Shown here piece by piece: positions 2,330 to 19,720 of a stretch of DNA of 19,720 nt (positions are counted from its first letter, which is position 1; each line of letters starts with the position of its first letter). This DNA comes from a virus. Its lineage: Duplodnaviria; Heunggongvirae; Uroviricota; Caudoviricetes. The position numbers were made by a program, and so were the translations under genes. The stretch lies in the IMG/VR virus record IMGVR_UViG_2541047897_000009, one strand, 5' to 3'. The notes under the pieces were generated by a model. The model did no database searches. It saw nothing but the letters and a program-made list of their open reading frames with translations, and was not told the DNA's origin.

Positions 2330-2533
2330 ATGAACACTGACACTATTCCTACAAAAGGCTATATCAGACGCTTCCGCCTGGCTGAATTGCTGGGCGTTAG
2401 TGTATCCACCATCGACCGTAAAGTAAGAAACGGTTCACTACCACGTCCGGTAAAGCTGGGAGAAAAAATAACTGCGTTTGATGCGGTTGAGATTCACAAC
2501 TGGCTGGCAGAACGCCGCGGGAAGGTGGCCTGA
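2330..2533 (+). CDS. alpA: AlpA-family HTH transcriptional regulator / excisionase-like
   Basis: 67 aa; motif RLAELLGVSVSTIDRKVRNGSLPRPVKLG typical of AlpA/Xis HTH proteins. Confidence 0.88.
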   Translation: MNTDTIPTKGYIRRFRLAELLGVSVSTIDRKVRNGSLPRPVKLGEKITAFDAVEIHNWLAERRGKVA

Positions 2534-2964
2534 TGGAAAAGAAAAACCGCCCATTACAGGCGGCTAATTCAGATATTCGCGTATCTGATGTTACGCCCCT
2601 TACAAAATCCCTTCAAGCACCAAAGCGCACACCGAAAAAGCATCGTGCCCGAGTCTATATGCTGCGTACTGGTATAGAGGGATGGACAGAAAATGACATT
2701 CTTCGCTACTGCCGTCTGTCTTCTGGTCGTAACTATGCAACAGAGTTAGAACGCCAGCTTGGAATCACTCTGGAGCGTATCGACGAAAAGAATCCTGATG
2801 GTATCGGAACACACCTCCGCTACCGTTTTTCCTGCCGTGGTGATGTTCTGAAAGTGATCACTCATGTTAACCATCTTGCGAACATAAATGATCACAACGG
2901 ACTTTCTCAGCAGGAAATTGCCGACATTCTGAAACTCTACCCGGACGCGTTTAACGCCGCCTAA
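2533..2964 (+). CDS. Hypothetical protein, 143 aa
   Basis: ATG overlaps alpA stop (TGATG), implying translational coupling; basic N-terminus. Confidence 0.65.
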   Translation: MEKKNRPLQAANSDIRVSDVTPLTKSLQAPKRTPKKHRARVYMLRTGIEGWTENDILRYCRLSSGRNYATELERQLGITLERIDEKNPDGIGTHLRYRFSCRGDVLKVITHVNHLANINDHNGLSQQEIADILKLYPDAFNAA

Positions 2965-2976
2965 CGGAGACTGAAA

Positions 2977-3810
2977 ATGAACATCGAAAAAAGCAGATTA
3001 ATTTCTGAGGCCGCCCCTCATCCGAACGCCTCTCTGGGCACAATTAACGGTAATGAATTTGCCGCAATTGTCCCGGTTATTCCTGGTCATATCGGTGGGC
3101 GTGAAACCAATATTGTTAGCGCAAAAGCGTTACACAAAGCGTTGGGCGTGGGAAAAGACTTCTCTACATGGATCACTGATCGCATCTCTGAGTATGACTT
3201 CACCATTGGGCGCGATTACTCAGTCCATAAAACAATTTCCCCAAATTTGGGGAAAAGCCCGAATGGCGCGGCTTACAGCAAGATTAAGCAGTCTGGCAGA
3301 CCCGGTAAAGACTATCTGTTAAGTGTCGGAATGGCGAAAGAACTGGCAATGATCGAACGCAATGATCAGGGTCGCGCTATCCGCCGTTATTTCATCCAGT
3401 GCGAGGAAGAATTACAGCGTAGCGTGCCTGAAATCGCCGCCCGCTATCGTCGCCAGCTAAAAGCCCGTATCAGTGCCGCAAACAACTTTAAGCCAATGTG
3501 CGATGCGCTGAATATGGCCCGTGCCGAGATGGGTAAAACGACGCAGCAACACCACTACACAAACGAGAGCAATATGATTTCTCGTATCGTTCTTGGTGGG
3601 CTAACTGCTAAGCAGTGGGCGCGGATAAATGGCTATTCTGGCGAACCTCGCGACCATATGAACGCAGAACAGCTTGAGCACCTCTCATATCTCGAAAGCA
3701 CCAATATCACGTTAATTGATATGGGCATGGAATATGAGCAGCGCAAAGGAGAACTCACCCGCCTGTCGCAACGCTGGCTCGCTAAGCGTCTGGAGGCGGT
3801 CCATGTTTAA
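2977..3810 (+). CDS. Phage antirepressor (AntA-like N-terminal domain + KilA-C/AntB-like C-terminal domain)
   Basis: SAKALHKALGVGKDFSTWITDRISEYDFTIGRDY matches the AntA pattern; KDYLLSVGMAKELAMIERNDQGRAIRRYFIQCEEEL matches the KilAC pattern; GGAGA RBS. Confidence 0.85.
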   Translation: MNIEKSRLISEAAPHPNASLGTINGNEFAAIVPVIPGHIGGRETNIVSAKALHKALGVGKDFSTWITDRISEYDFTIGRDYSVHKTISPNLGKSPNGAAYSKIKQSGRPGKDYLLSVGMAKELAMIERNDQGRAIRRYFIQCEEELQRSVPEIAARYRRQLKARISAANNFKPMCDALNMARAEMGKTTQQHHYTNESNMISRIVLGGLTAKQWARINGYSGEPRDHMNAEQLEHLSYLESTNITLIDMGMEYEQRKGELTRLSQRWLAKRLEAVHV

Positions 3811-3985
3811 GCCGACAGGAACACCACAACCTCAAAAACGCTACAAAGATGCCCACGGAGCACTCGTTACTGTCGAAAGCGTGTCTCACAACCGAGTGAC
3901 GTTTTATCGCGACGGGTATCAATCGCCATGCGTACAACCGCTGGCACGTTTCATGAAGGAGTTCGCGGAGGTTAACAAATGCTAA
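3803..3985 (+). CDS. Small phage protein, DUF4222-like (60 aa)
   Basis: Start ATG at 3803 overlaps antirepressor stop (ATGTTTAA); sequence MFKPTGTPQPQKRYKDAHGALVTVESVSHNRVTFYRDGYQSPCVQPLARFMKEF recalls the DUF4222 pattern. Confidence 0.6.
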   Translation: MFKPTGTPQPQKRYKDAHGALVTVESVSHNRVTFYRDGYQSPCVQPLARFMKEFAEVNKC

Positions 3986-4478
3986 CCGCCCAGAAGAAGA
4001 TATTTTCACTGGCCGATATGTCGCCAAAATCCAGCAATATGACAGCAAAATCAGGCATTAATACAGCAGATGCAAGCAAAGTTTATCATTTGCTGGTGGT
4101 AGGAGCGGATGCCTTAACTATGTCAGAAATTACGGTCGATGGTGTTAGCGTTGAGAAGGTCAGCGGCTGCGCCAGAGAATTTCTGGTCGTAGATGGCTTT
4201 CTCTGCTCGCGTAGTGGCTCCACAAAAACCTTCGTCCACACGCGCGACGTTAACGAAATGAGCGCGATGTATTGTGCATCTGGTGCTTCCAATAGTGAGT
4301 TTTCGGAGTCCATAAAAAAGAGCTTGCCGTTATGCGGCAACACGGTTTATGGTTATAAGGCACCTCATAAAACGGGTGCCGGGATTGGCGTCCTGGTAAA
4401 TCGAATGGCGACATATGACGCGCCGAGCGTCTTTTTTTATGTCGTAGGTCTGACTCACCCATTTTTTGGGCGTTGGTG

Positions 4479-4484
4479 TATAAT
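4479..4484 (+). promoter_or_regulatory. Consensus -10 hexamer TATAAT; candidate early promoter of the icd-to-primase operon (poor -35)
   Basis: TATAAT at 4479-4484 preceded by a T-tract; about 155 nt upstream of the icd-like start. Confidence 0.35.
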
Positions 4485-4490
4485 CCAGCG

Positions 4491-4640
4491 CCTTTGTCAA
4501 TCAATGGTGGCTCAGGCAGGGGCTTCTTCGGAAGCGCCGGTATCCATTCGAGCCGGTTACGCCAACCCTGTCTGGGCTACCACCAGCGAAATTGGCGTTT
4601 CCGGTGGTAGCGTTACATGCTATCGAATGGAGGCTGCCAC
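4491..4640 (+). ncRNA. Structured leader; possible P4 CI-like immunity RNA region with seqA/seqB-like repeats
   Basis: UUCG-tetraloop hairpin 4522-4535; 9-bp perfect stem GCTACCACC (4576-4584) / GGTGGTAGC (4603-4611); direct repeats ATGGTGGCT (4504-4512) and ATGGAGGCT (4627-4635), the latter overlapping the icd RBS. Confidence 0.3.
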
Positions 4641-4835
4641 ATGCTGGCTACTACCCCTACCCAAAAACCGCAATTTATCTGGATTATCGCCGCAGTTCGC
4701 CGCGATTGCCCGACAATTACCGCCAAAATTCATCATATTGCTGCCGAGTCTGAACGCGATGCTCGCCGTTCTCTGGTGCGCGATCACGTCTGCTTTTTTG
4801 CTGGTCGTATCCGCATGGAGGTGGCACATGATTAA
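4641..4835 (+). CDS. icd: Host cell division inhibitor Icd-like small protein (64 aa)
   Basis: GGAGG RBS 6 nt upstream; QKPQFIWIIAAVRRD ... ESERDARRSL ... FFAGRI resembles the Icd-like family of P4-type elements (from memory). Confidence 0.6.
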   Translation: MLATTPTQKPQFIWIIAAVRRDCPTITAKIHHIAAESERDARRSLVRDHVCFFAGRIRMEVAHD

Positions 4836-5046
4836 AACCTACGATGTGCATATGGATCCCCTCGAACGCACAAGCCAGATCATCACACTGACAGAAGTGA
4901 TTAACGACATTCTGGTGAGCAACTCTCCCTCACGAGACGAAAGACTGAAGGCGTTACTCGCGATATTGGATCTCGCCGTTCGTGACGTTCATTTCCTGCT
5001 GGAAGGTGGCGAAATGCCAGGAAAAACGGGGGCAACCAATGAATAA
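4828..5046 (+). CDS. Hypothetical small protein (72 aa)
   Basis: GGAGGTGG RBS; ATG overlaps icd stop (ATGATTAA); clean start. Confidence 0.55.
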   Translation: MIKTYDVHMDPLERTSQIITLTEVINDILVSNSPSRDERLKALLAILDLAVRDVHFLLEGGEMPGKTGATNE

Positions 5047-5233
5047 CTCAATTAATGCCCCTCGACTTACGTCCGCACTTCAATTAATCGAGCAAGCAGC
5101 GGCTGTCCTGGTTGCTGTCAGTCTTTCGGCTGAAGAAATGGACGCTGCTGATGTCGTGGATGCGATTAAAGCGTGCTCATCTTTGGTTAACGATGCCCGT
5201 GCAGAGCTGGTAATTCTTGGGGGTGAAAAATGA
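5039..5233 (+). CDS. Hypothetical small protein (64 aa)
   Basis: ATG at 5039 overlaps upstream stop (ATGAATAA); in-operon. Confidence 0.5.
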   Translation: MNNSINAPRLTSALQLIEQAAAVLVAVSLSAEEMDAADVVDAIKACSSLVNDARAELVILGGEK

Positions 5234-5493
5234 ATATCAACTTAATTTATCGTCATCCGTGTGAGCTGGAAATTGAATCATTGCTGAGTCGTGAAGAGCT
5301 ATATCCAGACACATTCACTCTTGCAGATCGCACGACTGAACGGCTTACCAGAGCGCGCACAGGTCTGGTTCATGTGATGAATGAGATTCTTCCATCGGTG
5401 GGAGGGGAACAGGCGACAGTAATCAATAGCTGGCTACAAAAAGTTACCTCCCTGATAGATATCAGTTTAATCGATGCGGAGAGTGCGAAATGA
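5230..5493 (+). CDS. Hypothetical small protein (87 aa)
   Basis: ATGA start/stop overlap with upstream gene; G-rich RBS. Confidence 0.6.
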   Translation: MNINLIYRHPCELEIESLLSREELYPDTFTLADRTTERLTRARTGLVHVMNEILPSVGGEQATVINSWLQKVTSLIDISLIDAESAK

Positions 5494-5711
5494 CCAACAT
5501 CCAGCTCATTGAAGCGCAATGTCGCATCGAACAGGTTCAGACTGTTTTAGGGTTCTGGCTTGAAGGGGCCAGCCCCAGCAACAGAGACAAGTTAATGATT
5601 GGCGCGGTTATGTCACTGCTCAATGGCGTACCAAAAGCTATTCAGGAAGCAGACGAATTGTTGGGCAAATATGAGTTACAGAATCATTCAGGCGAGGCGA
5701 AACATGAATAA
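5490..5711 (+). CDS. Hypothetical small protein (73 aa)
   Basis: ATGA overlap; GGAGAG RBS. Confidence 0.6.
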   Translation: MTNIQLIEAQCRIEQVQTVLGFWLEGASPSNRDKLMIGAVMSLLNGVPKAIQEADELLGKYELQNHSGEAKHE

Positions 5712-6306
5712 TTTCTTAACCTTCCATGCAGAAGCAACGCCTGACGGCGTAAACATCATGCACCGCAGCAACGATGGCATGACAGAACGCGTTGAGACCG
5801 TTTCATATATTGATGCCGTAAATCGTCTGGATGCCGGGGATTATGACGATAAACCAGATGAAGGTATGTCAATACATCTCGCTATTGCCGATGGCGGCAA
5901 CCAGGGATATTTCGATTACACATCACAGCATAACGTCATTATGTGGAGATGGCTGATCGCAACAGTATTCATGCTGGAAATGAGAGAGGAAAACGGCACT
6001 GTCAGCATCATTGATGATACTGGCAATCCTTCCGAAGTGGCTGTTTATTCCAACGGCATCGTCGCCATGCCGCTGTATCCAGTAGCAGAGCGCCTCGCTA
6101 TGGCAAACAACATTGAGGGCGCGATGATAGAACGTTTTGGCATCGAGTCTGGCACAGAACGCGCCATCATTTTCTACAGAGCCATGATGGATGTGGAACA
6201 AGGAGCACTGACTCCATTTGGTCGTGAAACGCTTGCTGAACTTCACAACAGCTTTATAGCTGAACTGAATGAAAACGGCATGCCAGCGGAACCAGTGACG
6301 CACTGA
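5704..6306 (+). CDS. Hypothetical protein (200 aa)
   Basis: Internal ATG at 5704 overlapping upstream stop (ATGAATAA) with GAGG RBS; preferred over the longer 5599 start. Confidence 0.6.
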   Translation: MNNFLTFHAEATPDGVNIMHRSNDGMTERVETVSYIDAVNRLDAGDYDDKPDEGMSIHLAIADGGNQGYFDYTSQHNVIMWRWLIATVFMLEMREENGTVSIIDDTGNPSEVAVYSNGIVAMPLYPVAERLAMANNIEGAMIERFGIESGTERAIIFYRAMMDVEQGALTPFGRETLAELHNSFIAELNENGMPAEPVTH

Positions 6307-6316
6307 GGATGGATCC

Positions 6317-6658
6317 ATGATTACTAAAAATTTCCGACTGAATGCGCTGGCAAATAAGTATGCGTCGGCACTGTATAACCACATTACCTCCACCAGCGGC
6401 GGGGACTATTTCATGGTTGATGCGGACGGCGAGGCCGTCCGTGTGGAAATCGTCAATGGAGTAAAAGGCGTTCGCAGCCTGATCGATAGCTACACACTGG
6501 CAGCCATGAAAGTGTTCTACCCGCAGTGGGAAACCGTGGGGATAGAGCTTCTTGATCGTTGCGTCACTAAGGACGGATTGACTGACGTCGGGCGTGAGAT
6601 ATGGCAAAGCATGGTTAATGACATGGGCGCAACTGTAGCGGGAGGTTCTCATGCGTGA
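6317..6658 (+). CDS. Hypothetical protein (113 aa)
   Basis: GAGGATGG RBS; in-operon. Confidence 0.6.
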   Translation: MITKNFRLNALANKYASALYNHITSTSGGDYFMVDADGEAVRVEIVNGVKGVRSLIDSYTLAAMKVFYPQWETVGIELLDRCVTKDGLTDVGREIWQSMVNDMGATVAGGSHA

Positions 6659-7022
6659 AAATGCAGAAATGGCGCTTAGCTCCGCAATCGGAGAGCAGGT
6701 GGCAAAGATTGCTGGCGCTGTGTGGATTCATAACCTTCATTCTACTGGTGAAGAGAAAATGGCAATTCAGACGCCAGAGGGACGCACCATTACTACATCT
6801 CTGAAGGCGTCAGATGTTTGTGATCTGATTTGCGCATTCATGTACCCAGCAATGAGGACTGTCCACGGCGATAAGTGGAAACTTGCGACAACCGCTGAAT
6901 TTGATATGTGGCTAAACAATGATGGCATGCTGACTGATTACGGAATAACCAAGTGGCAGATGCTGGTTAGCCATATCGCAAACGCTATAGACCACGTGGG
7001 GTACGGTGATGCGAAACATTGA
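6651..7022 (+). CDS. Hypothetical protein (123 aa)
   Basis: GGGAGG RBS; 8-nt overlap with upstream gene; overlaps primase start. Confidence 0.6.
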   Translation: MRENAEMALSSAIGEQVAKIAGAVWIHNLHSTGEEKMAIQTPEGRTITTSLKASDVCDLICAFMYPAMRTVHGDKWKLATTAEFDMWLNNDGMLTDYGITKWQMLVSHIANAIDHVGYGDAKH

Positions 7023-9765
7023 TCTTATCCGTCAGGTTATCAGTGCGTCTGAAAACAACTGGCCTCATGTGCTGGGCTGCCTGAACATAAATGTCCCTGA
7101 CTCTCCGCGCCGTCATGCTCCCTGCCCTGCATGTGGGGGCAAAGATCGATTCCGGTTCGATGACAACGGGCGCGGTAGCTTCATCTGTAATCAGTGCGGC
7201 GCTGGTGATGGACTGGATTTAATTAAACGCGTAAATAACTGCGACACAACAGAGGCGGCGCTTCTTGCCGCTGATGTTCTGGGTATTGATTACCGGACAA
7301 CGGAAACACCAGAAGCCACCAGCCAGAAACGGGAACAACTGGAAACCGAGCGCCAGCGACGCGAACAGGAGCGCCTGAAAAGGGCAGAGAAGGACGAACA
7401 ACAAAGACGGGATACGTTTTCCCGTCAGTTTGATGACATGCGCAGAAAGGCTGTAAACGGCAAATCTGATTATCTGGTTGCGAAAGGGGTAGGTGATTTT
7501 ACATTCCCCGTGTTGCCCGATGGATCTCTGTTGCTGGCGCTGGTGGATAAATCCGGCGCAGTAACAGCAGCACAGACTATTACCTCACATGGTGAAAAAA
7601 GACTCCTGACAGGTTCAGCAAAGCGAGGGGCATATCACGCCATAAACGCACCAGAAACAACACAGAGCATCTTAATCGCAGAAGGGCTGGCAACGGCATT
7701 ATCTGCCCATTTAATTCGTCCAGAGGCGCTGACAGTGGCGGCGATTGATGCCGGGAACCTGTTATATGTCGCCCAGGTACTGCGGGATAAATTTCCTTCA
7801 GCACAAATCATCATTGCTGCGGATAACGACCACAGCGAAGGAAGACAAAACACGGGGAGAATAGCAGCAGAAAAAGCAGCTTTATCTGTTTCTGGATGGG
7901 TGGCATTACCCCCGACAGATCACAAAGCAGACTGGAATGATTACCACCAAAAACACGGCATTAAATGCGCCACAGAAGCGTTCAATAAGTCAATGTACCA
8001 ACCACAGGGTAATGGCGTGAAACAGGAGCCACAGACCATTGAGGGAAGCGATTTTAAGGTTATGGATACCGACCCACTGAAACCAAGAATAGAAAGCCGC
8101 GAGGATGGTATTTATTGGGTATCTCCGAGAGCTGACAGCCAGAGTGGAGAAATCATCAATAACGAAAGCTGGTTATGTTCTCCGTTAAGCGTTATCGGTA
8201 CTGGCAGAGACGATAAAGACCAGTATCTCATTCTTCGCTGGCTGTCGTTTGGTTCTGAAACGCCGACAACCGCTGCCATTCCACTGGCTGATATTGGTGA
8301 ACGTGAAGGATGGCGCACACTTAAAGCTGGTGGGGTAAATGTCACGACCAAAAGCAGCCTCAGAGCAATACTGGCAGACTGGCTACAACGCAGTGGCTCT
8401 CGTGAATTGTGGCGTGTTGCTCATGCCACTGGCTGGCAATGCGGAGCGTACATCATGCCTGATGGGGAAATCATCGGAACACCTGAAAATCCTGTGCTGT
8501 TCAGCGGGAGAAGCTCAGCCGCAGCCGGATATACCGTCTCAGGGAGCGCGAAAAGCTGGCGTGATAACGTGGCGCGTCTGGCCTTTGGTAACTATTCAAT
8601 GATGACCGGGATCGGCGCAGCACTGGCAGCGCCATTGATTGGGCTGGTGGGCGCTGACGGGTTCGGCATTCATTTCTATGAGCAGTCGAGCGCAGGTAAG
8701 ACCACCACGGCAAACGTGGCGAGCAGCTTATACGGCAACCCTGATTTACTGCGGCTGACGTGGTACGGAACCGCGCTGGGGCTGGCAAATGAAGCTGCCG
8801 CCCACAATGACGGACTAATGCCGCTTGATGAAGTTGGTCAGGGCGCTGATCCTGTCAGTGTTTCACAGTCTGCCTATGCGTTATTTAACGGTGTAGGGAA
8901 ACTGCAAGGCGCTAAAGATGGTGGAAACCGGGATCTAAAACGCTGGCGTACAGTGGCAATCAGCACCGGAGAAATGGATTTAGAAACATTTATCGCTACT
9001 TCCGGGCGAAAAACCAAAGCCGGGCAACTGGTGCGACTGCTGAATATTCCGTTGAGTAAAGCAGTACGCTTTCACGATTACCAGAACGGAAAACAGCACG
9101 CAGACGCACTGAAAGACGCTTACCAGCATCACCACGGCGCGTCCGGGCGTGAGTGGATTAAATGGCTGGCAGACCACCAGCAACAGGCTATTAAAACTGT
9201 TCGTGATTGCGAAAGCAGATGGAGAAGCCTGATCCCATCCGATTATGGTGAGCAGGTTCACCGTGTAGCCGCGCGATTTGCCATTCTGGAGGCCGCATTG
9301 TTGTTAGGCGAGGTTGTAACAGGCTGGGATGCTCAGACATGCCGTGATGCGATACAGCACAGCTATAACGCATGGTTGCGCGAGTTCGGCACAGGTAACA
9401 AAGAGCATCAGCAGATTATTGAACAAACGGAGGCATTTCTTAATGCCTATGGGCTTAGCCGTTTTGCACCATTTCCATACAGCCCGGCAGATTTGCCCAT
9501 CAAAGATTTAGCCGGATACCGTCAGCGTGGAGAACATGACGAAAGTCCAATGATTTTCTACACATTCCCGGCCACATTTGAAAAGGAGATCGCATGTGGT
9601 TTCAACGCAAAACAGTTTGCTGAAGTGTTGAAAAAAGCCGGGATGCTAACCCCACCAAACAGCGGTCGTGGATACCAAAGAAAATCACCACGTATTCAGG
9701 GACGACAAATAAACGTTTATGTACTCAATTACCAGCCAGGAGATTACAACTCATCTGAAGAATGA
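7009..9765 (+). CDS. Bifunctional primase-helicase, P4 alpha type (zinc-ribbon primase + Toprim + C-terminal NTPase)
   Basis: CPACGG...CNQCG zinc ribbon; Toprim-like ILIAEGLATALS ... IIIAADNDH; Walker-A-like SSAGKTT; 919-aa ORF (GTG 7006 / ATG 7009). Confidence 0.9.
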   Translation: MRNIDLIRQVISASENNWPHVLGCLNINVPDSPRRHAPCPACGGKDRFRFDDNGRGSFICNQCGAGDGLDLIKRVNNCDTTEAALLAADVLGIDYRTTETPEATSQKREQLETERQRREQERLKRAEKDEQQRRDTFSRQFDDMRRKAVNGKSDYLVAKGVGDFTFPVLPDGSLLLALVDKSGAVTAAQTITSHGEKRLLTGSAKRGAYHAINAPETTQSILIAEGLATALSAHLIRPEALTVAAIDAGNLLYVAQVLRDKFPSAQIIIAADNDHSEGRQNTGRIAAEKAALSVSGWVALPPTDHKADWNDYHQKHGIKCATEAFNKSMYQPQGNGVKQEPQTIEGSDFKVMDTDPLKPRIESREDGIYWVSPRADSQSGEIINNESWLCSPLSVIGTGRDDKDQYLILRWLSFGSETPTTAAIPLADIGEREGWRTLKAGGVNVTTKSSLRAILADWLQRSGSRELWRVAHATGWQCGAYIMPDGEIIGTPENPVLFSGRSSAAAGYTVSGSAKSWRDNVARLAFGNYSMMTGIGAALAAPLIGLVGADGFGIHFYEQSSAGKTTTANVASSLYGNPDLLRLTWYGTALGLANEAAAHNDGLMPLDEVGQGADPVSVSQSAYALFNGVGKLQGAKDGGNRDLKRWRTVAISTGEMDLETFIATSGRKTKAGQLVRLLNIPLSKAVRFHDYQNGKQHADALKDAYQHHHGASGREWIKWLADHQQQAIKTVRDCESRWRSLIPSDYGEQVHRVAARFAILEAALLLGEVVTGWDAQTCRDAIQHSYNAWLREFGTGNKEHQQIIEQTEAFLNAYGLSRFAPFPYSPADLPIKDLAGYRQRGEHDESPMIFYTFPATFEKEIACGFNAKQFAEVLKKAGMLTPPNSGRGYQRKSPRIQGRQINVYVLNYQPGDYNSSEE

Positions 9766-9780
9766 GCTTCTTCATGTGCG

Positions 9781-9912
9781 TAGAAAAGGTGTTGGTTCAG
9801 TTGGTTCAGTTGGTTCAGTTGGTTCAATTTGTAAAGAGTATTGTTTTATAAGTATTTTATTCTTTTTATTGAACCAACACTGAACCAACAACACGGTATT
9901 TTGAACCAACAC
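9781..9912. repeat. Iteron block A (ori-like): 4 tandem GTTGGTTCA, AT-rich spacer, 3 inverted TGAACCAAC
   Basis: Direct copies at 9781, 9790, 9799, 9808; inverted copies at 9870, 9881, 9902; immediately downstream of the primase gene. Confidence 0.8.
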
Positions 9913-9960
9913 AATGTGACTGAATTGATGCGCACAACACCTGGCTGGCATCAGAGAGTG

Positions 9961-10035
9961 TTTTACGAGACTTTCGTAAAATCCTGTGTACAAGGGCGTG
10001 ACGTTTTTGAAAGTGAGCACTACGAAATTTTCGTA
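9961..10035. promoter_or_regulatory. Pair of palindromic operator-like sites sharing half-site TTTCGTA
   Basis: TTTTACGAGACTTTCGTAAAA (9961-9981) and perfect palindrome TACGAAATTTTCGTA (10021-10035), centres about 57 bp apart. Confidence 0.4.
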
Positions 10036-10230
10036 GTTCAAAAAACAGCCTCTGAGAAGTTGTTATGCCTGTTCAGCAAACCATCCGCATAGCTGATCGC
10101 GAATCAAATTACCAATGGAGCCAGAAGCAAGGGCAGAACTGAAAAGCGCCTGCCGTGAAGAGTAATGCGACACCATAAATATAGTTTTTAGAGTCCATAA
10201 AAAACCTGTCAAAACCTGACACACAGAACG

Positions 10231-10263
10231 ATGCCACCAGCTACTGAGCGGTGGCATTTTTTT
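10231..10263 (+). terminator. Rho-independent terminator
   Basis: 8-bp GC-rich stem ATGCCACC / GGTGGCAT with 11-nt loop, followed by 7 T residues. Confidence 0.65.
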
Positions 10264-10358
10264 GTGCTATTTGTTTCATATTTTGCAATTACTATGATGA
10301 ATATTGCGATTTGTGAAACTATAATAACTGTTGTTTTATACAGTTCTAAGGGGGCGTT

Positions 10359-10520
10359 ATGGCTATTTCAGTAAAGCCGGTATTGATAAGTGAGAAGCAA
10401 ATGGAAGCGATAAAGAAAATTCAGGAAGAGCAGCGTAAAAAATCAGGAATTGGAGTAGCGCCAACTCTGCATGAAATTGCACGAGGGTTAATAGATAAGG
10501 CGCTGGCAGGCTGTATGTGA
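10359..10520 (+). CDS. Small protein (53 aa), possible ribbon-helix-helix DNA-binding regulator
   Basis: Below the 60-aa ORF-track cutoff; strong RBS AAGGGGG 5 nt before ATG; predicted strand-helix-helix pattern. Confidence 0.5.
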   Translation: MAISVKPVLISEKQMEAIKKIQEEQRKKSGIGVAPTLHEIARGLIDKALAGCM

Positions 10521-10536
10521 AAATGGATGGCATCGC

Positions 10537-10998
10537 ATGGAACTAAAATTTATTGATAACCCTGTGCGATTACAGGCCTTTCTTAACGAGCCAGGCAATA
10601 CCGAAAATATTGTTGAGCCGGGGCACACGTACTACATCAAGCCTGATGCGGTATATCTCGGCATCTACGAAGGATTGGTGCTGGCTGGCGTTCATGAAGT
10701 GCGTAACTTCTGGCATAGCATTGTTGAATGCCATGCGGTGTACGCCCCCGGATTCCGTGGTGAATATGCACTGCAAGGGCATCGATTATTCTGCAAGTGG
10801 CTTCTCGAAAACTCACCATTCCTTAACAGCATTACCATGGTTCCTGACACCACGAAATACGGACGGGCAATTATCCGTTTGCTTGGCGCTACCCGTGTTG
10901 GTCACCTTGATGATGCTTATATCAGATGTGGTAAACCCGTCGGCGTAACGCTTTATCAGTTAACTCGGCAACAATATAAGGAATTCAGCGAATGTTAA
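10537..10998 (+). CDS. Hypothetical protein (153 aa); first gene of a coupled 4-gene operon, possibly a virion/ejection-protein assembly factor (P22 gp14-like by position only)
   Basis: Clean ORF; downstream gene start overlaps its stop (ATGTTAA). Confidence 0.65.
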   Translation: MELKFIDNPVRLQAFLNEPGNTENIVEPGHTYYIKPDAVYLGIYEGLVLAGVHEVRNFWHSIVECHAVYAPGFRGEYALQGHRLFCKWLLENSPFLNSITMVPDTTKYGRAIIRLLGATRVGHLDDAYIRCGKPVGVTLYQLTRQQYKEFSEC

Positions 10999-11669
10999 TT
11001 ACCCACATAGCTCATAAACATCTCAATCGTGCCGTATACGAAAAAGGCGGTGATGGTGGTGCCTCTAAAGCTCAGGCGAAGGCCCAGCAGCAGGCAATTG
11101 ATTTGCAGCGCGAGCAGTGGAATACGGTGATGAATAATCTCAAGCCGTATGCAGAAGTCGGATTGCCTGCTTTACAACAACTACAAGGACTGATGACTCT
11201 GGAAGGGCAGAATAAAGCCGCGAATGATTTCTTTGGTTCTGGTTTATATAAAACACAGGCAGATCAGGCCCGTTATCAGAACCTTGTCTCAGCAGAAGCT
11301 ACCGGGGGGCTTGGCTCAACAGCTACCAGTAACCAGTTATCTTCCATTGCGCCCATGCTTTATAACAATTGGCTTAGTGGGCAAATGCAAAATTATGGAA
11401 ACCTGCTAAATGTCGGGATGAATGCGGCATCAGGGCAGGCAACAGCAGGGCAAAACTACGCCAATAATACCGGGCAACTCTTGCAGGGGCTTGGCGCTAT
11501 TCGTGCAGGTCAGGCGCAGCAGCCATCCAGTCTTGCGCGTGGTATTGGTGGGGCGGCATCAGGCGCTTTAGCGGGTGCGCAACTTGGTTCCGTTGTTCCG
11601 GGTATAGGTAATGTCGCCGGGGCTATTGGTGGTGGGCTTATTGGTCTTGTTGGGGGGCTTGGATTCTAA
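10992..11669 (+). CDS. Putative virion internal / DNA-ejection protein (225 aa; P22 gp7-like by size, order and composition)
   Basis: AAGGAA RBS; Q/A-rich; glycine-zipper hydrophobic C-terminus (GIGNVAGAIGGGLIGLVGGLGF). Confidence 0.7.
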   Translation: MLITHIAHKHLNRAVYEKGGDGGASKAQAKAQQQAIDLQREQWNTVMNNLKPYAEVGLPALQQLQGLMTLEGQNKAANDFFGSGLYKTQADQARYQNLVSAEATGGLGSTATSNQLSSIAPMLYNNWLSGQMQNYGNLLNVGMNAASGQATAGQNYANNTGQLLQGLGAIRAGQAQQPSSLARGIGGAASGALAGAQLGSVVPGIGNVAGAIGGGLIGLVGGLGF

Positions 11670-13090
11670 TGGCGACATGGCAACTTGGCGGGCTGCCTAG
11701 CATGGCACCGCAAAATGATAATGCTCCTCGTTCTTCCGTTCCTCAGCCTGTGCAGTATCAGCAGCAGCCAAACGTAGGTTTAATGGCGCTACAGGGGCTA
11801 AGAGGCGTTGCTGAGATTAATCAGCAGGCACGTCAACAACAGCGTAAAGCAGAGTTTCAGAAAGCATATGCCGGGGCTTTTGAGTCTGGAGACAGAAACA
11901 AAATGCGCAGTCTTATTTCTGAGTATCCAGAAGAATTTGAAAGCGTTCAGAAAGGGATGGGCTTTATTGATGACGACCAGAGAAATTCTATTGGTCATCT
12001 TGCGACTAGTGCTCAAATCGCATCTTCGCTCGGAACTGGGGCATTTGGAAAATTCATAGCAGATAACGAAGATGAAATGCGTCGCTTGGGAATTTCTCCT
12101 GAGTCTGTTGCCGAAATGCATGTTAATGATCCACAGGGATTCCAGCGGCTTGCTGGTAGTATGGCACTGTTTTCTCTCGGTCATGAGAAGTATTTCGATA
12201 TCAAAGATCAAATGGAAGGTCGGGATATTGAGCGTGGCAAGTTGGCAGAAACAATCCGCAGCAATCAGGCTGGCGAAGCACTTCAGGCGAGAGGGCAGGA
12301 TATTAGCCGAGCAAATGCGTTAACGTCAGCATATGCACCAACAGCAGCAATGCAGAATTACAATCAGTACGCTCAAATGTTAAAGGAGGATCCAGAGGGG
12401 GCGGCGGCATTTGCGGCAGCGGCTGGAATTAATACAAACGCCAAAAAATTAATGAGTGTTAGAGAAAACGATGATGGCACTGTCACAAAATACTACACAG
12501 ACGGAAGTGAAGAGCAGGGAAAACTAAACCAGCCAATATCTGGAGATGGGTTTCGTCCAATAGCTTTGCCAACAGCCCAAAAGATCATGGAAAAGTCGCC
12601 AGAAGGGGCTAAAAAAGCTGCTGGATTTGCATACAGAGTTAGGGATGCTCTTGATTCAATGGATACACTGAAAGGCCAGCTTAGCCCACAGCGAGTGGCG
12701 ATCATTAATAATGCTTTGGGTAATGGGACGCTGGCTAACTTAACGCTCAGCCCAACAGAGCAGCAATACGTTGTTAATGCTAATGACGCAATAATGGCAA
12801 TACTCCGTCAGGAAACAGGGGCAGCTATCGTACCTGCTGAAATGTCAAAATATTATCAAATGTATTTCCCTCAGCCTGGCGACTCCACAAAAACCATTGA
12901 TACCAAGCGCCGGAAGATGGAAAACCAGTTCAATTCGCTGAAAGCTGCTTCTGGTCGAGCTTATGATGCTTTGCGGGTTATTTCAGCAGTTGACAGAGGG
13001 ACTTCTTCTTCGTCGCAGACATTGCCGCAATCTGAGCAGGTATCACAGCCAGCAGCCAGCAGTAACTTTTCTTCACTATGGGGTGATTAA
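11669..13090 (+). CDS. Putative DNA-ejection / internal virion protein (473 aa; P22 gp20-like by size and order)
   Basis: TAATG overlap with upstream gene; low-complexity Q/A/S-rich termini. Confidence 0.7.
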   Translation: MATWQLGGLPSMAPQNDNAPRSSVPQPVQYQQQPNVGLMALQGLRGVAEINQQARQQQRKAEFQKAYAGAFESGDRNKMRSLISEYPEEFESVQKGMGFIDDDQRNSIGHLATSAQIASSLGTGAFGKFIADNEDEMRRLGISPESVAEMHVNDPQGFQRLAGSMALFSLGHEKYFDIKDQMEGRDIERGKLAETIRSNQAGEALQARGQDISRANALTSAYAPTAAMQNYNQYAQMLKEDPEGAAAFAAAAGINTNAKKLMSVRENDDGTVTKYYTDGSEEQGKLNQPISGDGFRPIALPTAQKIMEKSPEGAKKAAGFAYRVRDALDSMDTLKGQLSPQRVAIINNALGNGTLANLTLSPTEQQYVVNANDAIMAILRQETGAAIVPAEMSKYYQMYFPQPGDSTKTIDTKRRKMENQFNSLKAASGRAYDALRVISAVDRGTSSSSQTLPQSEQVSQPAASSNFSSLWGD

Positions 13091-15195
13091 TGGCTAAAGC
13101 ATGGAAAGATGTTATCGCCTCTCCACAGTATCAGGCGTTAGCACCAGAACAAAAAGCGCAGGCTCAGGAGCAATACTTCAATGAAGTCGTTGCCCCGCAA
13201 GCCGGAGAAAGTGTAGCGCAGGCTAAGCAGGCTTTTTATGCTGCCTATCCACTACCATCAACGAATGAAATAGACCGATCCCAATCAGCAACTCAAAATA
13301 TTCAACATACATCATCTGATAATTCTCTTGCGTCAGGGTATGCAAAGTTAGCTACTCAGCAAAGAGAGGGGCTTGAGCGTTCAGCAGAACAGGGAGCCAG
13401 CCTTGGGGCTGCGATGCGCGATGCTATAACAGGCGAAAGCCGAATGACTCCAGAGATGGCGAGACTGCAAAATGTCGACCTTGCCCCAGAGTTAACCTCA
13501 CTCAGTATGGATGCTCTAAAAGCTCGATGGTCTCAACTTTTCGGCTCTGACGCATCTCAGGAAAAGATTCTTCAGAGCATGGGAGCGAAATTAAGGCAGG
13601 ATGAGAAGGGTAACACTATCGTTTCCCTGCCATCCGGTGATTATGCTCTGAACAAGCCGGGTTTATCGCCGCAAGACGTGGCATCGTTTCTGGCTAATGC
13701 GCTGGCGTTTACACCAGCGGGCAGGGCCGGAACGGTGCTGGGGGCCATAGGGAAATCAGCAGCTACAGATTTAGCACTACAGGGAGCCACCAGCCTTGCT
13801 GGTGGAGAAGATATTGATCCGTTACAAACGGTAATTTCTGCTGGCATTGGCGGCATTGGTAAGGGGCTGGAGAATACAGCGAGTGCGGTTTCGAGGGCTG
13901 TTCGTGGTGATATGGCACCGGAAGCGAAAGCCGCTGTTGATTTTGCATCGGAAAGAAACCTGCCGTTAATGACCAGTGACGTACTGAAAGATAAAAACAC
14001 TGTGCAGAGTCTGGCCCAGAAAACAGGCGAAAAAATCCCTTTTTTTGGAACGGGTACGAACAGGTTGAATCAACAACAGGCACGGGAAAATCTGGTCAGA
14101 ACATATAACGATGGTCTGGGAGGCATTTCAGATAAACAGCTTTATGAATCTGCGACTAAAGGGCAGCAAAAATTCATTGAGGCCGCAGGAAAGCGATATA
14201 ACCGCATAATTGACGCTATGGGGGATACCCCTGTCGATCTCTCAAACACGGTAAAAGCTATCGACAATCAGATTGCCGTGTTAAGCCGCCCGGGCAAATC
14301 TCAGGATAGAGCCGCGGTAAAAGTCTTGCAGCAATTTAAAGACGATATCACCAGCGGACCAAATGACCTGCGTCTGGCGAGAGAAAACAGAACTGACCTT
14401 CGAAAGCGGTTCATGAATTCAAACGAGACAGTTGATAAAGACACGCTCCAGAAAGCCAGCGATATTGTCTACAAGGCATATACGCTGGATATGAGAAGGG
14501 CAGTAGCCCAGAAACTGGGTTCAGAAGAAGCAGCCAATATGGCAAGGGTCGATCGCTCATGGTCTAAATTCAATGACATGATGGGAAGAACGCGCGTTCA
14601 GAAGGCAATAGCCAGCGGCAAGGCCACGCCTGAGGATGTAACAAAACTCGTTTTTAGCCAAAGCTCATCAGAACGTTCTCAGCTTTACAGGCTTCTGGAT
14701 GACAACGGCAGGCAGAACGCACGGGCAGCCATAATACAGAATGCTGTAGATAAGGCGACTGATTCGGCGGGGAATATCAGCGTTGAGAAGTTTATTAACA
14801 CGCTACACCGGAACAGAAAGCAATCCGCAACGTTCTTTAAGGGCGTGCACGGAAAGGAACTGGACGGCATTATTAAATACCTCAACGATACCAGACAGGC
14901 GGCAAAGGTTGACGGTCAGAAATTAAACAGCCAGAAACTTTATGGCCTGCTGGTTGGTGGAGGCGCTATAAATGCGGCAGTTCTGGCGGGGATGCTGAAA
15001 ACGGCTGCGTTTGTTGTTCCTGCTGCTGGTGCCGTAGGCGGAGCAGCGAAGGCATACGAAAGCCCTGTTATACGAAATGCCTTGTTACGTCTGGCAAATA
15101 CGCCAAAAGGTAGCACAGCATATGACAGAGCGATCAGTACGGTCACACAATCACTGACCACAGCAGCACAAGCATCGCAAAAGGAAGCTCAATAA
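13090..15195 (+). CDS. Putative DNA-ejection / internal virion protein (701 aa; P22 gp16-like by position)
   Basis: TAATG overlap with upstream gene; A/Q/G-rich; hydrophobic glycine-rich segment near C-terminus (GLLVGGGAINAAVLAGMLKTAAFVVPAAGAVGGAA). Confidence 0.7.
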   Translation: MAKAWKDVIASPQYQALAPEQKAQAQEQYFNEVVAPQAGESVAQAKQAFYAAYPLPSTNEIDRSQSATQNIQHTSSDNSLASGYAKLATQQREGLERSAEQGASLGAAMRDAITGESRMTPEMARLQNVDLAPELTSLSMDALKARWSQLFGSDASQEKILQSMGAKLRQDEKGNTIVSLPSGDYALNKPGLSPQDVASFLANALAFTPAGRAGTVLGAIGKSAATDLALQGATSLAGGEDIDPLQTVISAGIGGIGKGLENTASAVSRAVRGDMAPEAKAAVDFASERNLPLMTSDVLKDKNTVQSLAQKTGEKIPFFGTGTNRLNQQQARENLVRTYNDGLGGISDKQLYESATKGQQKFIEAAGKRYNRIIDAMGDTPVDLSNTVKAIDNQIAVLSRPGKSQDRAAVKVLQQFKDDITSGPNDLRLARENRTDLRKRFMNSNETVDKDTLQKASDIVYKAYTLDMRRAVAQKLGSEEAANMARVDRSWSKFNDMMGRTRVQKAIASGKATPEDVTKLVFSQSSSERSQLYRLLDDNGRQNARAAIIQNAVDKATDSAGNISVEKFINTLHRNRKQSATFFKGVHGKELDGIIKYLNDTRQAAKVDGQKLNSQKLYGLLVGGGAINAAVLAGMLKTAAFVVPAAGAVGGAAKAYESPVIRNALLRLANTPKGSTAYDRAISTVTQSLTTAAQASQKEAQ

Positions 15196-17537: not shown

Positions 17538-17825
17538 ATGATAAGGGACAGGAAAGCTGAAGAGCTGGAGTCAAAAGGGCTATGCCGGAGAGCTGCCACA
17601 CGATGGGCAGAAGTCATGACGCTGGCAGATGGCGATAAAGAACGTGAACATGCAGCAAACAGACGCTCTGAATGTATCCGTAGGGCGGCACGCCCACCAG
17701 CAACTACAGACAGATTCGGAGATTTAAGACAGGCAGTTAAGCGAACTCATTCGGCTCTTGGTATGGATGAGGAAGCGAGAGGGTACTTCAGGCGTTATCG
17801 CGATAGAGATTGCCAGAGACAGTAA
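17538..17825 (+). CDS. PerC-family transcriptional regulator-like protein (95 aa)
   Basis: AEELESKGLCRRAATRWAEVM resembles the conserved PerC/Pch N-terminal motif (from memory); GAGAGG RBS. Confidence 0.65.
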   Translation: MIRDRKAEELESKGLCRRAATRWAEVMTLADGDKEREHAANRRSECIRRAARPPATTDRFGDLRQAVKRTHSALGMDEEARGYFRRYRDRDCQRQ

Positions 17826-18236: not shown

Positions 18237-18698
18237 TCACCAGTGCCTTAGAGTTTCATAATTCATAACTGCTATGGCGATCTCCAGCTTAGTCGTTTCA
18301 AGTATTTCTTCACATAAGACCAGATCATGAATGATGTTTTTGAGTAGCTCCTTATCGATTGCTCCATCAGCCACCCAAACTGCGATGTTTTCCATTTCTC
18401 GCACAAAAAGTTGTACACAATGGCCAAAGCCATTTATCTCAAGAAAGTATGTTGAAAGGGCGATGCTTGATCTTTTATTTCCGTCACTAAAAGCATGGAA
18501 TTTATTGATTGCAAAGAACAAGTGACTTAGTTTGTCTACAAATCCTGGGTAATACCAGTCGTTTTGGATATGCTCAAGGGCACTCGCCAGTACCCCTTGG
18601 TCTCTGATTCCGTGTAAGCCGCCCGTTTTCTCAATGATCCAATCATGAACCCTAATGGCGTGTTCAATATCAAAATAATTGAATTGTATATCGTCCAT
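18237..18698 (-). CDS. Fic/Doc-family protein (death-on-curing-like toxin; 153 aa)
   Basis: Fic/Doc core motif HAFSDGNKRSS (H-x-F-x-D-G-N-K-R); GGGGG RBS 5 nt upstream; 8 bp downstream of partner gene on the same strand. Confidence 0.85.
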   Translation of the reverse strand: MDDIQFNYFDIEHAIRVHDWIIEKTGGLHGIRDQGVLASALEHIQNDWYYPGFVDKLSHLFFAINKFHAFSDGNKRSSIALSTYFLEINGFGHCVQLFVREMENIAVWVADGAIDKELLKNIIHDLVLCEEILETTKLEIAIAVMNYETLRHW

Positions 18699-18706
18699 TT
18701 ATACCC

Positions 18707-19720
18707 CTATCGGTCTTTTAGTCTTTTGAACACTTCTAGGGTTTCTGGGTCGTTCAGGCGCTCTTCAAGTGATTTACTTTTCTCACCCAAGAAACGTTCA
18801 AAGTCCCCTTCAGGTACAGCTCTTACGTAAGCTTCAAGTTTTTCATGCAGCGCATCTCTGAAACAGAGATCCCTACTTGCCATTTTGGTTCTGGCATCTA
18901 GCATCATAGGCTTAAACAATGGATGAGATTCAAATTGTTTAAAAATAGCTTCTGCTTCCTGTTGTGTCAGTTTTCTGCCTAAACGAGAGAATTCTTGTTT
19001 TAATTCATGTGCAATACCTGATTCGAAACCTGCAATAAGAGTTAGAGCTTCGGAGTACATTGTGTCCCGGATTTTCTCTTTTTGAGCAAGATTCAATACC
19101 TTGCGGTACTCGGCCGCGTCTTCGTGGAAAATACTTTGATACACAAGGTTGGTAAACCTTGCATACTTCCAATTATTCCCTTCGACGCATTCATCTAAGG
19201 CATCAGTGAATTGCTTGCGATAGCTTTCTTCTTGAAAAGAAGCCAATAGGTAATTCTCATCACGTTGGTTGATGTACTTGGTATGTCCACCAGCCCTTTC
19301 GGCTAAAGTATCAATGACAATATCAAGCAGGCGCGTACGTATAATCTTGGCTTGCTCACTTTCGACCAGTAGCATGGCGAAGTTCAGGACAGCTCGGTAA
19401 TTAAACACTCCAATAGTAGGAGCCTTGTTACCCTCATTGATGAAGGAGACATGCTCTAACCCTTTGAATTCTTTTAGCTCTCTCCCTTTTATAAGTCGAT
19501 AACCATTGCTCTTGAGTTCATTGCTATGATTGGCGATATACCGTTCCACAGTGGCATCGCTTATACCAAAAATTTCCATAAGTTGACTTTTTGTAAAAAG
19601 TCGTTCTCCATTGAACTCAACTCCACCAAGAGCAAGATGTTTTTCAGCTTGTCGGAGTGCATAGGAGTTGTTCAGAATATTTTGTCTGTCATGAGCGGAG
19701 GTTGTTAAATCTTTAGCCAT
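18707..19720 (-). CDS. RhuM/DinD-like protein (337 aa), upstream partner of the Doc-like gene; start coincides with the window edge
   Basis: AT-rich ORF; overall pattern resembles RhuM-family proteins that commonly pair with Fic/Doc genes (from memory, unverified); stop TAG 8 nt before Doc ATG. Confidence 0.6.
   Translation of the reverse strand: MAKDLTTSAHDRQNILNNSYALRQAEKHLALGGVEFNGERLFTKSQLMEIFGISDATVERYIANHSNELKSNGYRLIKGRELKEFKGLEHVSFINEGNKAPTIGVFNYRAVLNFAMLLVESEQAKIIRTRLLDIVIDTLAERAGGHTKYINQRDENYLLASFQEESYRKQFTDALDECVEGNNWKYARFTNLVYQSIFHEDAAEYRKVLNLAQKEKIRDTMYSEALTLIAGFESGIAHELKQEFSRLGRKLTQQEAEAIFKQFESHPLFKPMMLDARTKMASRDLCFRDALHEKLEAYVRAVPEGDFERFLGEKSKSLEERLNDPETLEVFKRLKDR

Follow-up and report, generated by a model that had tools for sequence, protein, structure and literature searches.

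The stretch of DNA analysed here, which we call the window, is the 19,720-nucleotide IMG/VR record IMGVR_UViG_2541047897_000009, assigned to a virus of the class Caudoviricetes. Positions 4641–7022 of the window hold eight small open reading frames (ORFs), W1 to W8, placed between an RNA immunity leader and a gene for a primase-helicase. All eight were found on the + strand, in agreement with the sequence-only reading of this DNA that our analysis followed up. We consider it likely that they are real, coupled genes that make up the distal part of an immunity-gated, replication-proximal early operon, and that this operon belongs to a Gram-negative phage-inducible chromosomal island (PICI) of the EcCIMP1 type.

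Eight coupled genes lead into the primase gene

The first translated gene of the operon is W1 (4641–4835, 64 amino acids (aa)), which is Icd/Kil-like. It is followed by four genes for small acidic proteins: W2 (4828–5046, 72 aa, family H), which is at the same time the C-terminal part of a longer, eta-like frame described below; W3 (5039–5233, 64 aa), a rare cassette; W4 (5230–5493, 87 aa, family F); and W5 (5490–5711, 73 aa, family D). W6 (5704–6306, 200 aa) has a net charge of −21 and is the conserved partner of W7 (6317–6658, 113 aa), the best conserved of the eight, whereas the W7 paralogue W8 (6651–7022, 123 aa) is rare. The last gene of the operon, also on the + strand, runs from an ATG at 7009 to 9765 and encodes the primase-helicase, for which Pfam and PHROG matches delineate a Zn-ribbon, a Toprim and a DUF927 part.

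The W1/W2 junction reads ATGATTAA, the W2/W3 and W5/W6 junctions both read ATGAATAA, the W3/W4 and W4/W5 junctions are ATGA, and W7 overlaps W8 by 8 nt (ATGCGTGA). These six overlaps had been listed in the sequence-only reading, but the list left out the other two junctions, a 10-nt spacer with a GAGGA between W6 and W7 and a 14-nt overlap of W8 with the primase gene. A purine-rich run resembling a Shine-Dalgarno (SD) sequence is present 5–9 nt upstream of every start, and W2 has an SD of its own, GGAGG, at 4816–4820. Since −4 or −8 overlaps occur at 76 of the 106 icd-to-primase junctions of 19 diverged islands, the overlaps are not a product of chance. On the + strand of 4641–7022, we found no terminator-like sequence and no promoter-like (σ70-like) consensus.

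In diverged relatives, all eight ORFs are under purifying selection. Each ORF was compared with its diverged positional homologues from 56 species-level loci that were fetched via the W7 family. We used these cross-genus loci because close Escherichia coli variants (92–96% identity) carry too few substitutions in W1–W5, W7 and W8 for a codon-position test; W6 in the close variants displays 84 changes in the third codon position compared to 32 in the first and 28 in the second. In the cross-genus comparison, pN is well below pS for all eight ORFs, and dN/dS is 0.08–0.38 where dS is unsaturated, values that have to be read with the bias towards pN < pS which comes with homologues selected at the protein level. 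The dN/dS ratio is 0.08–0.35 for W1, 0.09–0.33 for W6, 0.11–0.31 for W7, and 0.18–0.38 for W2, whose homologues are 39–48% identical and lie directly 3′ of icd in three of the loci. For W3, it is 0.20 against a single diverged homologue (62% identity), and close relatives add six synonymous and two non-synonymous changes. W4 homologues from eight species-level loci, 55–62% identical, give a pN of about 0.28 and a pS of 0.59–0.94, and W8 has one diverged homologue (locus L036, 53% identity). In most of the W4, W5 and W8 comparisons pS is saturated, with pN at 0.27–0.51.

An antisense RNA leader complementary to the icd ribosome-binding site

Two structured RNAs precede W1 on the + strand: an isrK or P4 seqA-like leader RNA at 4360–4437 (Rfam RF01394, 67.1 bits) and an antisense immunity RNA of the C4 or P4 CI type at 4500–4587 (Rfam RF01695, 79.5 bits). 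Both exceed the Rfam gathering scores in the window, in 10 relatives and in P4. The C4 RNA exposes two pairing elements. The b′ loop, TCCATTCGA (4543–4551), has an upstream target b1 inside isrK (4401–4408) and a downstream target b2 (4623–4631), and the single-stranded a′ element, ACGCCAA (4559–4565), has its upstream target a1 inside isrK (4385–4391) and its downstream target a2 at 4592–4598. The complementarity of C4 to a2 and b2 is perfect over 7 nt and 9 nt, respectively, and b2 overlaps the SD of icd, GGAGG, at 4629–4633.

The loops and their targets covary. The 12 elements examined, 11 islands and P4, carry eight different b′ and six different a′ sequences, and in all 12 the a2, b2 and a1 targets have changed together with the C4 loops and are perfectly complementary to them; an upstream match of b′ of at least 7 nt is present in eight. 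As b2 runs into the SD-ATG of icd in every one of the 12, the start of W1 is placed at the ATG at 4641. The co-varying C4 loops represent at least eight immunity specificities and could serve for island typing.

An alignment of these 12 elements shows conserved GCTTGC and TATGGT/TATAGT boxes just 5′ of isrK. They correspond in the window to a promoter-like element at 4324–4353 on the + strand (−35, TTGCCG, 4324–4329; −10, TATGGT, 4348–4353), the equivalent of PLE, from which transcription would start at isrK. The 3′ end of isrK is formed by a hairpin and a run of seven U (GACGCGCCGAGCGTC TTTTTTT, 4417–4437) that is conserved in all 12 elements, P4 included. The highest C/G ratio of the interval 4300–7100, 2.42, is reached at 4648–4725, a 78-nt stretch at the 5′ end of icd, and this C-rich and G-poor stretch is a candidate Rho-loading site comparable to P4 timm. 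A perfect TATAAT at 4479–4484 is shared by some relatives only.

The leader also resembles immI of P1 and P7: a C4-family RNA carries a′ and b′ elements, the targets are duplicated (a1/b1 and a2/b2), and b2 lies on the icd ribosome-binding site. In the P1/P7 immI c4 scheme, icd gates the genes downstream of it, a role that it would also have here. Unlike in P1 immI, W2–W8 have no Ant, KilAC or BRO match in Pfam, PHROGs or NCBIfam, and an AntA gene (2977–3810) is located 5′ of the leader; three related loci (L017, L036 and L058) do have Ant-like genes (family J) inside the operon, as P1 immI does. Matches of the Rfam C4 and isrK profiles to several Gram-negative PICIs, together with a ‘Bro zone’, have been reported (Mageeney et al., NAR Genom Bioinform 2023, PMC10111431), and the same article treats the eta/kil logic as generally characteristic of the interval between the integration and replication genes of these islands. 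The available excerpts of that article make no mention of small genes that separate icd from the primase gene, of loop-target covariation or of a frame that ends in the second gene.

A conserved long frame crosses the leader and ends with W2

The sole open frame across the leader extends over 355 codons (3979–5046, + strand) and is annotated as ‘ash family protein’. While the eight ORFs of the sequence-only gene list were all retained, this eta-like frame had been missed. It runs through isrK, C4 and icd, shares the reading frame of W2 but not that of W1, and has a stop codon (5044–5046) that overlaps the start of W3 at 5039. In all 12 elements, P4 among them, one frame of 217–385 codons is open across both RNAs, and the remaining two frames span 17–202 codons and never exceed 120 in the 11 islands. 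The long frame ends at the icd stop in seven of the 12, including P4, and at the stop of the next gene in five, including the window. In each relative for which there is an annotation, the preceding gene has a stop codon that overlaps the start of the long frame. The 5′ third of the frame has a pN/pS of about 0.5.

Translation of P4 eta from an upstream late promoter blocks immunity-specific termination (PMC10111431, summarising Forti et al. 1999). By its frame structure, the window is a variant of this eta/kil arrangement in which the nested terminal gene is W2 and not kil. The Pfam Phage_ASH match (PF10554) covers aa 124–232 of the frame, which correspond to 4348–4675 of the window, the isrK–C4 stretch. 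The ‘Ash family’ signal thus stems largely from the conservation of the RNA genes, or from the eta-like read-through frame, and not from a folded domain. The idea that the 355-aa ORF is purely an annotation artefact was dropped in view of the frame being open in 12 of 12 elements and of the precedent of P4 eta.

The converse explanation would be that some of the ORFs are not genes and that the only true product is the 355-aa ‘ash family protein’ called by the Prokaryotic Genome Annotation Pipeline (PGAP), with icd and W2 not made separately. In its favour, the RefSeq entry of E. coli strain 042 annotates nothing but the 355-aa ORF across the icd/W2 stretch, and the frame is kept open across relatives. 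W1, however, matches the Icd family in its own frame with E = 3.7e-20, evolves at the low dN/dS given above and has a conserved SD-ATG, and RefSeq calls a 64-aa Icd instead in MP1 and other strains. Furthermore, W2 has its own GGAGG and its diverged homologues directly 3′ of icd, and the Pfam ASH match falls on the RNA genes. We regard a single ‘ash’ product as very improbable. Public annotation hides either icd or W2 behind the ‘ash family protein’ call: in strain 042, the PGAP call conceals icd and swallows W2, and in MP1, where the 64-aa Icd is called, ‘ash’ appears as a pseudogene and W2 is uncalled.

Icd-like W1 and the acidic proteins W2–W8

W1 matches the Icd-like family NF033153 of NCBIfam with 71.7 bits against a cut-off of 25 and is, on the strength of this profile, an Icd/Kil-type division inhibitor. 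It had been the only one of the eight recognised from the letters alone, and it keeps this position, as W2–W8 are without a functional match in Pfam, NCBIfam, PHROGs and PADLOC. Pfam and NCBIfam return no match of any kind for W2–W8, PHROGs places only W5 (phrog_20558, E = 2.4e-8), W6 and W7, all in families of unknown function, and the PADLOC matches are at chance level (E of at least 0.003). Profile searches with the W4, W5, W6 and W7 families gave no match among PDB sequences, a model of W7, whose fold is predicted with confidence, gave none in PDB or BFVD, and tblastn with W2–W5 and W8 gave none in 50,697 phage records.

All of W2–W8 are acidic, with a pI of 4.2–5.6. W5 carries a conserved L-x2-W-L motif. 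Judging from profile comparisons, its family D forms a larger group with families O, L and G, all of them mini-proteins of about 65 aa, and members of this group are found in several copies per operon in relatives; the hhalign E-values are 4e-6 for D–O, 2e-4 for L–O and 2e-4 for G–L, compared to 7e-3 for the best reversed-sequence control. The notion that W2–W5 are all paralogous helical hairpins was rejected: BLASTP found nothing, hhalign linked only W5 with families O, L and G, and W2, W3 and W4 did no better than the reversed-sequence control (best control E = 0.007).

W7 and W8 (families B and N) are paralogues according to hhalign (E = 9.6e-7 over 93 columns, probability 91%). The C-terminal half of W6 shares an LTxxGRE motif and the order of secondary structure elements with W7 and W8, at E-values of 0.011–0.019 that are no better than the control, an unproven hint that W6 contains the W7/W8 domain. 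Clustered at 50% identity, the W6 family has only 145 representatives in a set of 1.84 billion proteins; those homologues that have a source name are all from Enterobacterales and are all called ‘hypothetical protein’. Homologues of W4 and of one neighbouring cassette have been given erroneous names, ‘nicotinic acetylcholine receptor subunit beta’ and ‘ubiquinol-cytochrome C reductase’ among them. Taken by their composition and distribution, W2–W8 are neither DNA-binding nor enzyme-like proteins, and most probably they bind and modulate proteins of the helper or the host.

A conserved pair and a pool of cassettes

The 19 islands follow one layout: Icd comes first, three to nine small genes follow, W6 and W7 are set about 9 nt apart, and the primase comes last, in some islands after a W8. 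W7, via whose family the loci were fetched, is found in 56 of the 56 species-level loci; W6 is found in 42, the primase in 36, W1 in 17, W5 in 14, W4 in eight, W2 in four, and W3 and W8 in two each. Elsewhere, W2 and W3 are swapped for unrelated genes of 59 aa and 102 aa or for a tyrosine recombinase. From this pattern, W2–W5 are swappable cassettes drawn from a pool, and such turnover is typical of interaction or counter-defence genes.

W6 and/or W7 are also found in the early-left regions of Xenorhabdus, Yersinia, Kosakonia, phi467 and phiP27 prophages, where they lie 5′ of xis-int with no primase nearby. In phi467 and five other prophages, W7, often together with W6, adjoins antirepressor genes of the Ant, KilAC, ORF6N or Rha type, and in phi467 and one of the others (L026) the antirepressor gene is located between W6 and W7. 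W6 and W7 can therefore be described, from their genomic contexts, as a conserved pair common to islands and prophage early regions. The genes are sorted in this way into three groups, namely the conserved pair W6–W7, the paralogue W8 and the pool of mini-protein cassettes.

The element is an EcCIMP1-type PICI

Positions 2523–11829 of the window are 97.9% identical at the nucleotide level to EcCIMP1 of E. coli MP1 over 9.3 kb, and W1–W8 and the primase are 97.7–100% identical to EcCIMP1 proteins, which identifies the window as a Gram-negative PICI of the EcCIMP1 type. The region is 99.9% identical to that of E. coli 042, where it is inserted between yicC and dinD. Of 5,426 complete E. coli genomes, 253 (about 5%) contain at least 80% of positions 4400–7100, from the C4 RNA to the primase start, and related operons were found across Enterobacterales. 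The unidirectional gene order of PICIs is present: int, alpA, a Bro/antirepressor zone, the primase-helicase gene and a late/cargo zone.

Experiments have shown that excision, circularisation and transduction of EcCIMP1 all depend on one helper, the P22-like phage Kapi1, and are controlled by alpA (Pick, Stadel and Raivio, ISME J 2025, PMC11773190). The word ‘icd’ is absent from the main text of that paper, in which the small ORFs are hypothetical proteins; its available passages discuss neither these ORFs nor the C4/isrK leader, and the published EcCIMP1 work, to the extent of its available text, does not address the model of silencing and switching on that we propose below.

Four genes on the + strand lie upstream of the leader and were assigned by Pfam and the RefSeq annotation of E. 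coli 042: an alpA-like helix-turn-helix gene (2330–2533), a gene for a 143-aa protein without a family match (2533–2964), the AntA/AntB antirepressor gene (2977–3810) and a DUF4222 gene (3803–3985). They are joined by junctions of −1, +12 and −8, and the DUF4222 stop overlaps the ATG of the eta-like frame at 3979. EcCIMP1 has alpA, the 143-aa gene, antA, DUF4222, leader, icd, small genes, primase and P22-type ejection-protein genes in the same order. It differs from the window in its integrase and attachment site (tRNA-Thr at proA in MP1, as opposed to yicC–dinD in the 042 copy) and in the right-hand cargo. The 143-aa protein occurs in 24 of the 56 loci at 50–99% identity and is thus more widespread than most of W1–W8. 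An Rfam int-alpA RNA is located between int and alpA in five of the ten related islands scanned and is absent from the window.

Downstream of the operon, positions 10537–15195 form a P22-type ejection module with a DUF2824 protein (153 aa), a P22 gp7-like protein (225 aa) and a gp20-like injectosome translocase (473 aa). A fourth gene, in the position of gp16, encodes a 701-aa protein without a Pfam match, whereas the fourth ejection gene of EcCIMP1 encodes a 906-aa protein with a lytic-transglycosylase domain. A satellite that provides its own ejection proteins would be unusual. The Pfam scan for capsid, terminase or lysis genes covered these four genes, where it gave the three matches just named, and the other right-end ORFs are taken from the 042 annotation. 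Among the right-end cargo on the − strand (17538–17825 and 18237–19720) are genes for a regulator of the PerC family and for a toxin of the Doc type, the latter with an upstream partner.

Islands of the enterobacterial type were also met in assemblies labelled Pseudomonas lundensis, Chryseobacterium sp. and as a Paenochrobactrum metagenome-assembled genome (loci L021, L023 and L036), and the integrase of the Chryseobacterium locus, L023, is 90% identical to that of the window. ‘Elizabethkingia phage EKP1’ (OM284015) has W6 and W7 homologues and 68% nucleotide identity to E. coli at W7. These odd host labels suggest contamination, mis-binning or mislabelling.

Relation to the P4 early operon

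The parallel with the P4 early operon drawn in the sequence-only reading is real and based on homology, as the leader RNAs, Icd/Kil, the 8-nt overlaps and the primase N-terminus are shared. The P4 operon comprises PLE/PLL, seqA, CI RNA, seqC, eta/kil, epsilon, orf151, cnr and alpha. The isrK/seqA-like and C4/CI RNAs are homologous in the two elements and follow the same two-element pairing scheme. The first gene is Kil/Icd-like in both, the terminal segment (Kil) of the P4 ‘cI’ ORF being 43% identical to W1, and icd, epsilon and orf151 of P4 are likewise joined by 8-nt overlaps. Both elements have a long frame across the leader that is coupled to an upstream alpA/vis gene, and over 359 aa the N-terminal part of the primase shares 34% identity with P4 alpha. 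The window departs from P4 in the DUF927 helicase part of the primase, in the end of the long frame, which is in the second gene and not in kil, in having seven unrelated small genes instead of three, and in its helper, which is P22-like (for EcCIMP1) and not P2.

The only partners that P4 proteins have in the window are the integrase, Vis/AlpA, the ‘cI’ ORF/Icd and the N-terminal 359 aa of alpha. No homologue of epsilon, orf151 or cnr was found among the ORFs by tblastn and blastp, and sid, delta and psu have no tblastn match in the window. Because all of these are lacking, the element is not a P4-like satellite, although it shares the P4 regulatory backbone.

One of the small proteins had been suggested to be an epsilon-like derepressor, which would inactivate the repressor of the helper prophage. 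The place after icd is indeed that of epsilon in P4, and small, acidic and variable proteins are what one would expect of factors tracking a helper target. However, none of the proteins resembles epsilon, a dedicated AntA/AntB antirepressor is already encoded on the island outside the gated segment, and EcCIMP1 leaves both Kapi1 titres after induction and expression of the Kapi1 CI-lux reporter unchanged (PMC11773190). As the helper's titres and CI expression do not respond to EcCIMP1 and a separate AntA gene exists, an epsilon-like derepressor is unlikely, and this part of the sequence-only reading was not supported.

A probable replication origin and the genes next to the primase

The AT-rich spacer just 3′ of the primase stop, in which GC falls to 0.40, contains four tandem GTTGGTTCA repeats with 9-bp spacing (9791–9835) and three inverted copies (9869–9912). 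This repeat array suggests that 9791–9912 is probably the replication origin.

The position of W6, W7 and W8 could mean that they act on the primase as replication accessory proteins or as regulators of copy number, in the way of P4 Cnr (orf106), whose gene is just 5′ of alpha. They lie directly 5′ of the primase gene in 36 of the 56 loci. Among distant members of the W6 family, four of ten weakly match DUF5375, the Pfam family of Cnr, with E-values of 0.0013–0.09; three close homologues carry precomputed DUF5375 tags, and hhalign of the W6 family with P4 orf106 gives E = 0.025 over 51 columns. The distant relatives, however, score 13–19 bits against a gathering score of 30 bits for DUF5375 (PF17345), and neither W6 nor 50 aligned homologues match it. 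Furthermore, the Xenorhabdus, Yersinia, Kosakonia and phiP27-type prophages have W6 and W7 without an adjacent primase, and W7 remains 88–96% identical while the type of the downstream primase switches between DUF927 and P4-family. Conversely, W7 and W8 are missing from two islands (L003 and L007) and W6 from a third (L005) in which the primase is the same as that of the window, and so W6, W7 and W8 are dispensable for the replicon. The similarity of W6 to P4 Cnr is only a hint, and there is little chance that the three proteins regulate the primase in this manner.

A model of silencing and activation

The following regulatory mechanism is well supported at the level of the operon by homology, covariation and conserved architecture. 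In the quiescent island, the conserved promoter inside the eta-like frame would transcribe the isrK/seqA-like RNA, C4 and then icd. C4 would pair via its two exposed elements with targets on both of its sides, one of which is on the icd ribosome-binding site, and icd would remain untranslated. The untranslated C-rich start of icd would allow Rho termination, and the downstream genes would be silent. On induction, the helper phage would switch on the upstream alpA operon, and ribosomes arriving by coupling from DUF4222 would translate the eta-like frame across both RNAs, and the translated transcript would stay covered and become insensitive to immunity. The stop of the eta-like frame at the end of W2 would hand the ribosomes over to W3 and, via the −4 and −8 overlaps, on to the primase, which would fire the iteron origin just downstream.

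Several points weigh against this reading. The promoter at 4324–4353 and the dependence on Rho are extrapolated from P4, and the hairpin and U run at the 3′ end of isrK look like an intrinsic terminator placed 5′ of C4. The long frame and icd are read in different frames, so that the window does not exactly repeat the P4 arrangement with kil nested in the eta frame. The protein-binding role of W2–W8 is argued from charge and size, from the absence of signatures typical of enzymes or DNA-binding proteins, and from their exchange as cassettes. Finally, W3 and W8 have one diverged homologue each. What is new in the arrangement is a modest variant, the nesting of the eta-like frame with the second gene.

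A different emphasis would make the operon mainly a phage-triggered module of toxicity or superinfection exclusion, in which a phage factor upsets the RNA immunity or the alpA control and Icd and its partners stop the cell. In ECOR61, cell death triggered by a phage gene, orf24, needs an Icd-like gene, two small genes downstream of it and a primase, and it is suppressed by transposon insertions in the Icd-like gene and in the two small overlapping genes that follow it; P22 Abc1 had a comparable effect in combination with a P4 prophage (Silas et al., bioRxiv 10.1101/2023.04.06.535777). EcCIMP1 confers added superinfection immunity against Kapi1 while carrying no recognised defence system (PMC11773190), and PADLOC detects no defence component here either. 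On the other hand, the ECOR61 locus is only a possible member of this operon family, and any kil/icd operon should be toxic once derepressed, whether or not toxicity is the function under selection. Moreover, the last gene of the operon encodes a primase and is followed by the probable iteron origin, which is the architecture of satellite replication control. We consider a mainly defensive operon possible but doubtful, and prefer the early operon gated by RNA immunity and opened by the eta-like frame.

Within this preferred reading, anti-defence activity or manipulation of the helper by the small proteins is possible. It may tentatively be supposed, as the less probable course, that W2–W5 and W6, W7 and W8 are a set of satellite inhibitors directed against helper-phage or host factors, and that the operon is a sensor-effector defence module and a replication switch at once. 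Were this true, one or more of these proteins, set free as the RNA gate opens, would account for the superinfection immunity that EcCIMP1 confers against Kapi1 and for the Icd-linked cell death set off by a phage accessory gene in ECOR61.

Altogether, the analysis provides a concrete and testable model for the silencing and the activation of this PICI family, and it makes W2–W8 candidates for the unexplained phenotypes of EcCIMP1 and for new factors in the interactions of phage, satellite and host.

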